A DNA stretch of 5,629 bases from a virus (lineage: Duplodnaviria > Heunggongvirae > Uroviricota > Caudoviricetes): the IMG/VR virus record IMGVR_UViG_2660238352_000003. The stretch is one strand, 5' to 3'. The translations under genes were made by a program, and so were the position numbers. The notes beneath the pieces are model-generated. The model was not told where the DNA came from. It did not search any database and saw only the letters and a list, made by a program, of their open reading frames with translations. Shown piece by piece: positions 3,441 to 5,358 of the stretch (position 1 is its first letter; each line of letters begins with the position of its first letter).

Positions 3441-3803
3441 ATGGCTAGCGTACGCAGTACTGATGTGCAGGTATTTATCGTAGAACTGGACGGCGGCGTA
3501 TTTGAAACCAAACTCGGCGCAGTTCTCAGTGAAGTCGCTTCCGGTGTGATGAACACGAAAAACAAAGGTAAAGTCTCGGTCAATCTGGACATCGAACCGT
3601 TTGATGAGAACCGTGTGAAAATCAAACACAAACTCTCATATGTTCGCCCGACTAACCGCGGGAAAATTTCCGAAGAAGACACCACCGAAACGCCGATGTA
3701 TGTCAATCGAGGTGGTCGCCTGACTATTCTGCAGGAAGACCAGGGACAATTACTGACTCTTGCCGGTGAACCTGACGGAAAACTCCGCGCAGCAGGTCAT
3801 TAA
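3441..3803 (+). CDS. yfdP: YfdP-like prophage protein of unknown function (120 aa)
   Basis: ORF track frame 3255..3803; the extension before 3441 starts at TTG and has no RBS. ATG 3441 is preceded by GAGGAG (3428-3433, 7-nt spacer) and gives 120 aa (MASVRSTDVQVFIVELDGGVFETKL...). This matches my recollection of the size and position of K-12 CPS-53 YfdP, upstream of yfdQ. Alternative starts at 3423/3426. Confidence 0.7.
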   Translation: MASVRSTDVQVFIVELDGGVFETKLGAVLSEVASGVMNTKNKGKVSVNLDIEPFDENRVKIKHKLSYVRPTNRGKISEEDTTETPMYVNRGGRLTILQEDQGQLLTLAGEPDGKLRAAGH

Positions 3804-3868
3804 TATCGTTCTTAATTAACTGATTATTTATCTCATCACTGAATATCTTAATATAGTGAGGACTTATT

Positions 3869-4693
3869 ATGTCTCAGAACTTAGACGCAACCGCAATTAA
3901 TCAAATCCATGCCCTTATTTCTGCTCAGGGTGTTAATGAAATTATCAGTAAGATTGGTGCCGATGCTGTGGCATTGCCTGAGAATTTCCGCATTCATGAT
4001 CTGGAAAAATTTAATTTAAATCGCTTCCGTTTCCGTGGTGCGCTTTCCACTGCCAGCATCGATGACTTTACCCGTTATTCTAAAGATCTTGCAGATGAAG
4101 GCACCCGCTGCTTTATCGATGCCGATAATATGCGTGCCGTCAGTGTGCTTAACCTGGGTACTATTGGTGAACCAGGTCACGCAGATAACACCGCCACACT
4201 CAAACTGAAAAAGACAGCACCGTTCTCTGCTCTGTTGTCTGTTAACGGCGAGCGTAACTCCCAGAAGTCACTGGCAGAATGGATTGAAGACTGGGCCGAC
4301 TATCTTGTGGGCTTTGATGCTAATGGTGACGCTATTAAGGCAACAAAAGCGGCTGCGGCAGTCCGTAAAATCACGATTGAAGCAAACCAGACCGCTGATT
4401 TTGAAGATAATGACTTCAGCGGCAAACGCTCCCTGATGGAGTCTGTCGAAGCGAAGACCAAAGACATTATGCCAGTGGTATTTGAATTTAAATGCGTTCC
4501 GTTTGAAGGCCTGAAAGAACGTCCGTTTAAATTACGCCTCAGCATTATCACTGGCGATCGTCCTGTACTGGTTCTGCGCATTATTCAGCTGGAAGCAGTG
4601 CAGGAAGAAATGGCTAACGAATTTCGTGATCTGCTTGTTGAGAAATTTAAAGACAGCAAAGTAGAAACCTTTATTGGTACTTTCACCGCCTGA
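3869..4693 (+). CDS. yfdQ: YfdQ-like protein (DUF2303 family as recalled), 274 aa, function unknown
   Basis: ORF track 3869..4693. ATG is preceded by GAGGA (3858-3862, 6-nt spacer). Length and N-terminus ([20 protein letters not shown]...) fit recalled K-12 YfdQ. The coding potential is clean with no competing frames. Confidence 0.8.
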
Positions 4694-4705
4694 TTTCATT
4701 ACTGC

Positions 4706-4727
4706 AAATGCCCCTGCGGGGGCATTT
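4706..4727 (+). terminator. Terminator-like hairpin between yfdQ and yfdR (weak U-tract; possible partial terminator or RNA-stability element)
   Basis: AAATGCCCC (4706-4714), loop TGCG, GGGGCATTT (4719-4727), 13 nt after the yfdQ stop. A second small hairpin, TCGCC-TGAT-GGCGA (4752-4765), is followed by the T-rich run GGGTTTTCTTT. Confidence 0.35.
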
Positions 4728-4821
4728 ATGGAAACATAATTGACTCAATAATCGCCTGATGGCGAGGGTTTTCTTTAACCAAAATTCAGCGCGGTGCAGC
4801 GCATATAAAGTGGAGAACAAA

Positions 4822-5358
4822 ATGTCATTTATTAAAACTTTTTCCGGGAAGCATTTTTATTATGACAGGATAAATAAAGACGACATCGTGATTAACGATA
4901 TCGCGGTTTCCCTTTCAAATATCTGTCGCTTTGCAGGACATCTTTCACACTTCTACAGCGTCGCCCAACATGCGGTGCTTTGCAGCCAGCTGGTACCGCA
5001 GGAATTTGCTTTTGAAGCGTTAATGCATGATGCAACAGAAGCGTATTGCCAGGACATCCCAGCTCCACTGAAACGCCTTCTTCCTGACTATAAACGGATG
5101 GAAGAAAAAATAGACGCCGTAATCCGTGAGAAATACGGGTTACCTCCTGTTATGAGCACGCCTGTGAAATATGCCGATCTCATTATGCTGGCAACCGAAC
5201 GTCGCGATCTCGGGCTTGATGATGGCTCTTTCTGGCCTGTACTGGAAGGTATCCCGGCGACAGAGATGTTCAAAGTTATTCCACTGTCACCAGGCCATGC
5301 CTACGGGATGTTTATGGAACGTTTTAACGAGTTATCGGAGTTACGCACATGCGCATGA
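4822..5358 (+). CDS. yfdR: HD-domain 5'-deoxynucleotidase, YfdR-like (178 aa)
   Basis: ORF track frame 4759..5358. The internal ATG at 4822 is preceded by GGAG (4812-4815) and gives MSFIKTFSGKHFYYD..., 178 aa, matching recalled K-12 YfdR. HD-domain signature residues are present (GHLSHF..., ALMHDATEAY, downstream Asp residues). Confidence 0.8.
   Translation: MSFIKTFSGKHFYYDRINKDDIVINDIAVSLSNICRFAGHLSHFYSVAQHAVLCSQLVPQEFAFEALMHDATEAYCQDIPAPLKRLLPDYKRMEEKIDAVIREKYGLPPVMSTPVKYADLIMLATERRDLGLDDGSFWPVLEGIPATEMFKVIPLSPGHAYGMFMERFNELSELRTCA

Follow-up and report, generated by a model that had tools for sequence, protein, structure and literature searches.

The stretch analyzed here, a window of 5,629 nucleotides (5.6 kb) from the tailed-virus record IMGVR_UViG_2660238352_000003 (Caudoviricetes), comes from a lambdoid prophage, of which it spans the immunity region and the early-left region, and carries the gene cassette yfdP-yfdQ-yfdR. 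The prophage is of the SfV/mEp460/CPS-53 type, and the cassette is the part of its early-left (PL) operon that lies closest to the promoter. YfdP and YfdQ form an obligate pair of neighbors, to which YfdR is an optional addition. The robust unit is YfdP plus YfdQ, which is phage specific, early, located within or replacing the recombination/replication region, and found in both virulent and temperate phages. We propose, with a probability of about 0.35, that this obligate unit serves an early takeover of replication or other DNA transactions and is coupled, together with YfdR, to a shutdown of host initiation. Between PL and yfdP, the window also contains an undescribed conserved structured leader RNA, which is unannotated and outside Rfam.

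Gene linkage was surveyed in 80 loci, with one genome per species. YfdP was encoded upstream of YfdQ in 79 of 79 testable species-level loci and adjacent to it (<120 nt) in 78, and the same adjacency was found in five of five distant phages (Xanthomonas CP2, Pseudomonas LPPA56, two Vibrio phages, and one Acinetobacter phage) and in all eight further marine, environmental, or genomic contexts. A YfdR-like HD protein followed the pair in 56 of 77 loci. The initial annotation had described a tightly linked trio and suggested a co-occurrence analysis; the linkage is indeed conserved between YfdP and YfdQ, but it does not extend to YfdR with the same regularity. In 41 of the 80 loci, yfdR is followed by a gene for an Rv2179c-like DEDD 3'-5' exonuclease, about 1.4 kb downstream of yfdQ. 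Marine relatives (L170 and L179) encode an RNase_T exonuclease and CsrA just upstream of yfdP, and the genome of Burkholderia phage JC1 contains a CsrA gene besides the one for its DUF2303 protein.

The pair sits between a cI-like repressor and the integrase; in 67 of the loci, a cI-like S24 repressor is encoded on the same strand about 2.2 kb upstream. Its neighbors include RecT with YqaJ, Erf with an exonuclease, Sak4-type AAA_24 with DUF669 and PDDEXK, SSB (single-stranded DNA-binding protein), RNase_T/DEDD exonucleases, DUF1351, and integrase, and in the virulent CP2-type Xanthomonas podoviruses it belongs to the early "class I" cluster. We found the pair in 184 phage records versus 23 of 72,556 plasmid records, most of which look like mislabeled chromosomes or phage-sized replicons; a role as a plasmid leading-region function was discarded on account of these few records. 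A scan of viral contigs returned near-identical E. coli copies only and was uninformative on diversity. Among complete E. coli genomes, yfdP-yfdQ DNA is present in 2,722 of 5,426, so that yfdP, yfdQ, and yfdR must be real, conserved genes rather than chance open reading frames (ORFs). RefSeq annotates the three alike in the closest E. coli genomes, and the gene positions and sizes initially assigned proved correct when compared with the ORFs, the Pfam and phrog matches, and this annotation.

The cassette is predicted to be under direct repressor control. A promoter scan found the arrangement TTGACA-18-TACATT twice, with identical hexamers and spacing, as PL and as the rightward promoter PR. 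Both promoters lie inside one 40-nt inverted repeat (85% matched), and an 18-mer pseudo-palindromic operator (ATGTAGGATATCCAACAT) is present in four clear copies across the right (OR) and left (OL) operator regions. PL, about 340 nt upstream of yfdP, is a sigma-70 promoter overlapped by operators in common with the cro/cI intergenic region, as is typical of lambdoid PL operons. Since PL shares its operators and architecture with PR, direct repressor control in a classical OR/PR and OL/PL arrangement, already claimed in the initial annotation, is well supported at the level of sequence, with operator binding predicted. The repressor carries a Peptidase_S24 self-cleavage domain and should therefore be SOS inducible; the RefSeq label at this position in relatives is "LexA family transcriptional regulator." No independent cassette promoter besides PL was detected in the scan of the window. 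The placement of the genes "directly behind PL" needs amending, as they are PL driven but separated from it by the 340-nt structured leader, and SfV has an extra ORF and a terminator there.

The overall layout is that of the lambda PL operon, with cro and cI diverging from PR/OR, a terminator, PL/OL, a leader, and early genes that continue to xis and int in intact relatives. Unlike lambda, the window has no N gene or recognizable nut site (the ORF list contains no N-like ORF between PL and yfdP), the first genes are yfdP and yfdQ instead of N, and phages of this type lack Red/Gam genes. K-12 CPS-53 (KpLE1) and SfV (orf32-orf31-orf30) have the same genes in the same order as the window, and the SfV yfdQ region is 98% identical to it. 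SfV has a terminator annotated at the position equivalent to 3004-3032 and, unlike the window, carries an additional orf33 together with a terminator in the interval from cI to the leader. The repressor, PL, and the structured leader are gone from CPS-53, whose homology to the window starts at 3421.

This regulatory position bears on the possibility that the cassette is a moron-like stress tolerance function that benefits the lysogen, as suggested for K-12 CPS-53 (H2O2, acid, or methyl methanesulfonate [MMS] tolerance and control of other prophages). Such a role would agree with K-12 yfdQ and yfdS deletion phenotypes, as far as they are cited in PMC4776307, with a site upstream of K-12 yfdP that is bound by the host transcription factor SrsR and the yfdPQ mRNA detected in K-12 (PMC9181523), and with the effect on SW1 phage production of YfdQ overproduction, which induces this resident prophage so that plaques form (bioRxiv 10.1101/413146). 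The latter induction is also consistent with replication or DNA stress. However, the cassette lies behind a repressed PL, the pair is also found in virulent phages, and the region upstream of yfdP in K-12 has been exchanged in a lineage-specific manner, with homology only from 20 nt before the gene. Since the PL/leader region has been replaced there, K-12 yfdPQ expression data should not be transferred to intact prophages, and we regard a lysogen-benefit function as very unlikely. In CPS-53 (L167, 7248-7604), the replacing spacer contains four SrsR (YgfI) boxes of the TCAGATTTTG type, none of which is present in the window; the region compared with it was 3100-3440.

At the protein level, the window products are 93.3% (YfdP), 98.2% (YfdQ), and 97.2% (YfdR) identical to those of K-12 MG1655 CPS-53. 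YfdQ matches DUF2303 from end to end (Pfam PF10065; 303.6 bits against a cutoff of 26.6; E value, 1.4e-90; residues 7-272 of 274), as initially assigned, and also phrog_210 (E value, 4.1e-119). YfdP had no match in the local Pfam copy, which lacks the PF27127 model, but it belongs to phrog_204 (E value, 2.5e-48), and all 240 homologues listed carry the precomputed PF27127 ("YfdP") label; its family, clustered at 50% identity, has 421 representatives. Scanning 8 YfdQ and 54 YfdP family members against Pfam yielded no consistent match. Across 8 diverse YfdQ homologues, T61, Y70, H104, E140, R166, S188, and R237 are invariant. YfdR matches phrog_318 ("deoxyribonucleoside 5' monophosphate phosphatase"; E value, 1.7e-109), has an HD dipeptide at residues 69-70 with histidines at 40, 43, and 50, and is related to the HD protein 2gz4 in the PDB (E value, 1.6e-13). 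It shares the HD motif and a weak YfbR-like Pfam match with the YfbR-type 5'-deoxynucleotidases, but this match is just under the cutoff (24.3 bits against 25.9), and the YfbR equivalog NF003009 was not reached by far (19.9 bits against 122). By sequence, YfdR is an HD-domain phosphohydrolase and not a YfbR equivalog, and its distinctive documented property, unlike that of YfbR-type enzymes, is DnaA binding. The description of YfdR as an HD-domain 5'-deoxynucleotidase thus holds for the domain and the phrog family, and less so for the activity, which the literature quoted in PMC4776307 describes as weak.

The predicted structures gave no fold-level clue. The AlphaFold2 model of YfdP (predicted local distance difference test [pLDDT] score, 86) has a single long helix lying against a sheet of three long antiparallel strands, and that of YfdQ (pLDDT, 75) has an N-terminal helix, a domain containing a beta-alpha-beta-beta-beta arrangement, and a beta-beta-beta-alpha-beta domain. 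Foldseek against the PDB returned no match at an E value of ≤0.001, and neither model resembles a known fold; weak remote matches to a PARP14 macrodomain and to AcrB (E values of about 0.1 to 0.3) were considered noise. The check by structure prediction and homology likewise placed neither protein in a virion or structural family, and their genes are in the early, not the late, operon. Two low-confidence segments of the YfdQ model are nonetheless highly conserved in sequence; being predicted as disordered in the monomer, they are as expected for contacts between subunits or with a partner.

The PDB contains one relative of YfdQ, the entry 9o7m ("YfdQ Protein"; E value, 3e-44; about 38% identical), with 36 chains in one entry, whose sequence is 98.8% identical to that of Xanthomonas phage MET23-P3 of the CP2 group. 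This entry is outside the fold-search libraries and was compared with YfdQ by sequence only. Our literature search found no publication for it, and a cryo-electron microscopy preprint on the CP2-like phage PhiXacm4-11 gives other accession codes and does not mention it; neither a YfdP-family protein nor the neighboring CP2 ORF36 was found in the PDB. The chain count suggests that YfdQ forms a very large homo-oligomer, in the megadalton range. The DUF2303 protein gp10 of JC1, encoded in a replication/repair module, copurifies with CsCl-banded virions, which the authors attribute to DNA association (PMC9144972); its presence in virion preparations fits either DNA association or a particle-sized oligomer. 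The text of the Grad-seq paper contains no sedimentation data for YfdQ.

A counterdefense device, directed against restriction or immunity and produced first upon infection or induction, might also have these properties. Anti-restriction genes are typically promoter-proximal and early, as in the case of lambda Ral and T7 Ocr, and yfdP and yfdQ occupy such a position. A large oligomer would be compatible with sponge-like proteins, so that YfdQ would, for example, be a sponge or decoy, and the frequently linked HD phosphohydrolase and Rv2179c-like 3'-5' exonuclease would degrade immune signaling nucleotides. However, the pair is conserved and near-universally adjacent across orders at 26 to 60% identity, like a core function, whereas genes of this kind are typically patchy and hypervariable, and it is absent from the leading regions of conjugative plasmids. 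YfdP and YfdQ have an ordinary charge (isoelectric point of about 5 to 6), which rules out a reading as DNA mimics. No anti-defense family or fold was matched, and the PADLOC defense models gave no match for YfdP, YfdQ, or YfdR at an E value of ≤0.1. The initial annotation had considered the cassette a candidate host-manipulation or phage defense/counterdefense module; these results speak against the latter, and we consider such a function improbable.

A role in replication takeover is instead suggested by published genetics and pull-downs, carried out with orthologues that are 97 to 98% identical to the window proteins. Noguchi and Katayama (2016; PMC4776307) reported that multicopy yfdQ plus yfdR plus either yfdS or yfdT inhibits initiation at oriC, and that YfdR uses Phe46 to bind domain I of DnaA, in competition with DiaA and DnaB. 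The initial annotation had mentioned this effect of YfdR and the yfdQRST cluster on DnaA-dependent initiation, and the source bears it out. Sequence and comparison indicate that inactivation of the S24-type repressor lets PL fire, and that the transcript passes through the structured leader and then encodes YfdP, YfdQ, and YfdR. In the mechanism that we favor, YfdP and YfdQ would act jointly as a two-protein unit, with YfdQ building the very large, roughly megadalton homo-oligomer, and this unit would target DNA replication or DNA transactions at an early stage of the lytic cycle, with neither a virion nor a lysogen role. In this E. coli lineage, it would be coupled to YfdR, whose K-12 orthologue binds DnaA. 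The likely outcome would be that host chromosome initiation is shut off at induction, freeing replication resources for the phage.

Several observations weigh against this reading. YfdR is missing from about 27% of the loci and from most distant phages, which means that the core function of YfdP and YfdQ cannot depend on it. The Noguchi and Katayama study found that yfdP is dispensable for the multicopy initiation block, that deletion of yfdQRST has no initiation phenotype, and that YfdQ has no detectable binding to YfdR or DnaA, and its authors concede that the multicopy DnaA phenotype may be an artifact (PMC4776307). Neither YfdP nor YfdQ showed fold or sequence similarity to any replication or recombination protein, and the oligomeric state of YfdQ is read only from the chain count of an unpublished entry for a homologue of about 38% identity.

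The neighborhood of the pair could alternatively indicate a helper in phage homologous recombination or in the handling of DNA ends, that is, an unrecognized member of the "Rec module." Under this explanation, the pair might protect or organize DNA ends or replication intermediates, and YfdR and the DEDD exonuclease would be separate nucleotide-metabolism add-ons. In many unrelated phages, the pair is directly beside genes for single-strand annealing proteins (SSAPs), exonucleases, and SSB, and in SfV/LLS/ST64B-type phages it takes the place where a Rec module would be expected. The yfdQ deletion confers a mild sensitivity toward MMS and H2O2, as cited in PMC4776307, and the DNA association proposed for JC1 gp10 would also agree. 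However, the pair coexists with complete Rec modules (in ArgO145 and also in CP2, D478, and JC1) and is therefore no substitute for one. Pfam and Foldseek against the PDB revealed no similarity to Rec-module proteins, whether SSAPs (Redbeta, RecT, Erf, Rad52), Gam/Abc2, or exonucleases. Zheng et al. (2025; PMC12315714) found the trio to be common in lambdoid early-left operons and describe the function of YfdP and YfdQ as unknown, in agreement with the initial annotation; these authors (Casjens, Smith, and colleagues) judged the trio unlikely to be recombination proteins. As they also show, phage LLS carries the trio and yet grows better, not worse, with RecBCD, which makes a Gam/Abc2-like RecBCD inhibitor unlikely, and that candidate was dropped. 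We hold a recombination accessory to be doubtful, and the probability left over from the replication takeover and the three alternatives considered here goes to something else altogether.

Transcripts from PL would begin with a leader of about 340 nt without a convincing ORF, in which we found two structured modules, A and B. Module A has 97% identical copies in the P1-like phages RCS47 and vB_EcoM-813R1 and in IME207, and conservation of its ends extends to loci of Serratia, Kosakonia, and Rahnella, which suggests a mobile RNA or mosaic module. Module B has covariation support at the level of RNA. In an alignment of 27 species, 97% of the cells at its 42 base pairs were paired, and 16 of the 42 pairs showed compensatory changes, versus 6.5 ± 1.3 in column shuffles (0 of 500 reached this value) and no more than 7 in slid controls. 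Its minimum free energy is -60.1 kcal/mol (z score, -5.08). A covariance model scored 114.8 bits on the plus strand and 30.8 bits on the minus strand; as the former far exceeds the latter, the signal is at the RNA level and in the yfdP sense. The same model found it in synteny in Serratia, Morganella, Providencia, Proteus, and further genera, and module B is present in many genera of Enterobacterales. Its DNA is better conserved than the proteins encoded downstream: it is about 90% identical between genera with about 57% identity in YfdQ. It is present in 2,492 of 5,426 complete E. coli genomes (46%) and annotated in none of them; K-12 lacks it, as seen in the comparison with CPS-53. Rfam covariance models gave no match at an E value of ≤1 within 3100-3440.

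By analogy, module B may be an RNase III-type processing or translation-control hairpin. The lambda N leader has an RNase III-sensitive hairpin, and the long leader hairpin just before the first gene of the PL operon would be its counterpart here. It may also be an antiterminator similar to the put elements of HK022, an idea that gains some appeal from the lack of an N gene, the terminator-like hairpins in the yfdQ-yfdR spacer, and the terminator annotated upstream of module B in SfV. The leader RNA resembles put in being cis encoded, structured, and downstream of PL in a lambdoid phage without N, and it has two inner stem-loops and terminator-like hairpins downstream. Unlike put, it is located about 190 nt from the predicted transcript start rather than at it, it has a closing stem of about 23 bp, and the covariance model found no second copy in the PR operon. 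Identity with HK022 put itself was rejected, as the module B model found no match in HK022. No evidence was found for the leader RNA being Pas or STnc100 small RNA; Pas small RNAs are located near Q and lpxR. The yfdQ-yfdR spacer (4694-4821) has a full-length STnc100 match below the threshold (23.4 bits; E value, 0.05), and the PL leaders of SfV and ST64B have stronger STnc100-like matches (39.5 and 35.1 bits, still under the gathering score), which sit just 5' of module B.

Taken together with the leader, a bolder proposal would be that YfdP-YfdQ is an unrecognized two-component early machine, made of a megadalton YfdQ assembly and a small obligate partner, with a function (takeover of host replication or DNA transactions, or counterdefense) unlike that of any characterized system. 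In Enterobacterales, it would be gated by a new class of leader RNA (3296-3422), which may act as an RNase III-processed translational switch or as a put-like antiterminator; the E. coli occurrences of this RNA include Shiga toxin phages. We put this forward tentatively, as a somewhat unlikely account in its full form.

The remaining features of the window are collected in Table 1. Its closest complete E. coli genomes align to 91-5364 with identities of up to 97.6% over the full span, and one E. coli genome hit, aligned as two pieces, reaches 98.9%. Homology to intact relatives ends at 5358-5364 and that to K-12 at 5358. In intact relatives, the operon runs on to xis and int via small genes, yfdS-like ones among them. 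In the window, unlike K-12 and SfV, it is cut after yfdR by an IS66-type element; with this element directly after yfdR, the part with yfdS, yfdT, xis, and int is missing, and the prophage copy is probably defective, with its early-left operon severed from the distal genes. On the PR side, the region of the long Rha/Ash ORF contains matches to C4 antisense RNA (886-973, minus strand; 78.8 bits) and isrK (998-1074, minus strand; 58.7 bits), both above the Rfam gathering scores. The same pair is found in SfV and ST64B, and the region is a P1/P7 immI-like antisense-controlled antirepressor module. The window has four Chi sites, too few for inference.

TABLE 1 Features of the 5,629-nucleotide window
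Feature	Position	Strand	Details
Rha/Ash-type gene	286-1434	minus	
cII/YmfL-like gene	1431-2009	minus	
P22-Cro-like gene	2037-2234	minus	
PR	2295..2266	minus	TTGACA 2295-2290, TACATT 2271-2266
OR operators	2267-2284, ~2314-2332		18-mer, ATGTAGGATATCCAACAT type; between cro-like and cI-like genes
Weaker OR operator	~2289-2306		OR region
cI-type repressor	2330-2983	+	HTH_3 (Pfam, 1.2e-15) and Peptidase_S24 self-cleavage domain (Pfam, 4e-25)
Intrinsic terminator of repressor transcript	3004-3032	+	AAAACCGGGG/CCCCGGTTTT hairpin followed by T-run
PL/OL	3046-3099	+	-35 TTGACA 3070-3075, -10 TACATT 3094-3099; 10/12 promoter match
OL2	3046-3063	+	18-mer operator copy
OL1	3081-3098	+	18-mer operator copy overlapping PL -10
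Leader module A	3110-3244	+	Closed by perfect 10-nt inverted repeat GTTGTGGTGA / TCACCACAAC; -53.9 kcal/mol, z score -3.95
Leader module B	3296-3400 (~105 nt); small hairpin 3403-3422	+	~23-bp closing stem around two hairpins; directly 5' of yfdP Shine-Dalgarno sequence
yfdP	3441 (ATG) to 3803 (stop)	+	120 aa; Shine-Dalgarno GAGGAG at 3429-3434
yfdQ	3869-4693	+	274 aa; 65-nt gap after yfdP
yfdQ-yfdR spacer hairpins	4708-4727 and 4752-4765, then GGGTTTTCTTT	+	Second one terminator-like (terminator scan); fold z score -3.8 (4708-4775)
yfdR	4822 (ATG) to 5358	+	Annotated 178 aa; Shine-Dalgarno GGAGAA; mechanical ORF from 4759
yfdS remnant	5349-5396		IS66-family insertion a few codons into yfdS homologue
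IS66-family element end	5397-5629	minus	Terminal GTAAGCG at ~5397; transposase C terminus 5428-5613

The cassette itself is already known, as K-12 y-genes, as SfV orf30-32, as Pfam families, and from one functional paper and one structure deposit, and the idea of host manipulation is already published. What is of note here is its high prevalence, its prime regulatory position, the lack of fold-level clues, the obligate pairing, and the unannotated leader RNA. The pair is found in half of the complete E. coli genomes, and it is among the first products of very common temperate phages, including Shiga toxin-converting phages and serotype-converting Shigella phages. The problem has been narrowed to a pair that is obligate, phage specific, and tied to the recombination/replication region, with no known fold, and that is neither a known defense system nor a RecBCD inhibitor. 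The conserved leader RNA, possibly the most novel item of this analysis, is an immediately testable regulatory element missed by current annotation. Should the multicopy phenotype seen in K-12 mirror the genuine function, the cassette would represent a phage strategy for silencing DnaA-dependent initiation in the host.

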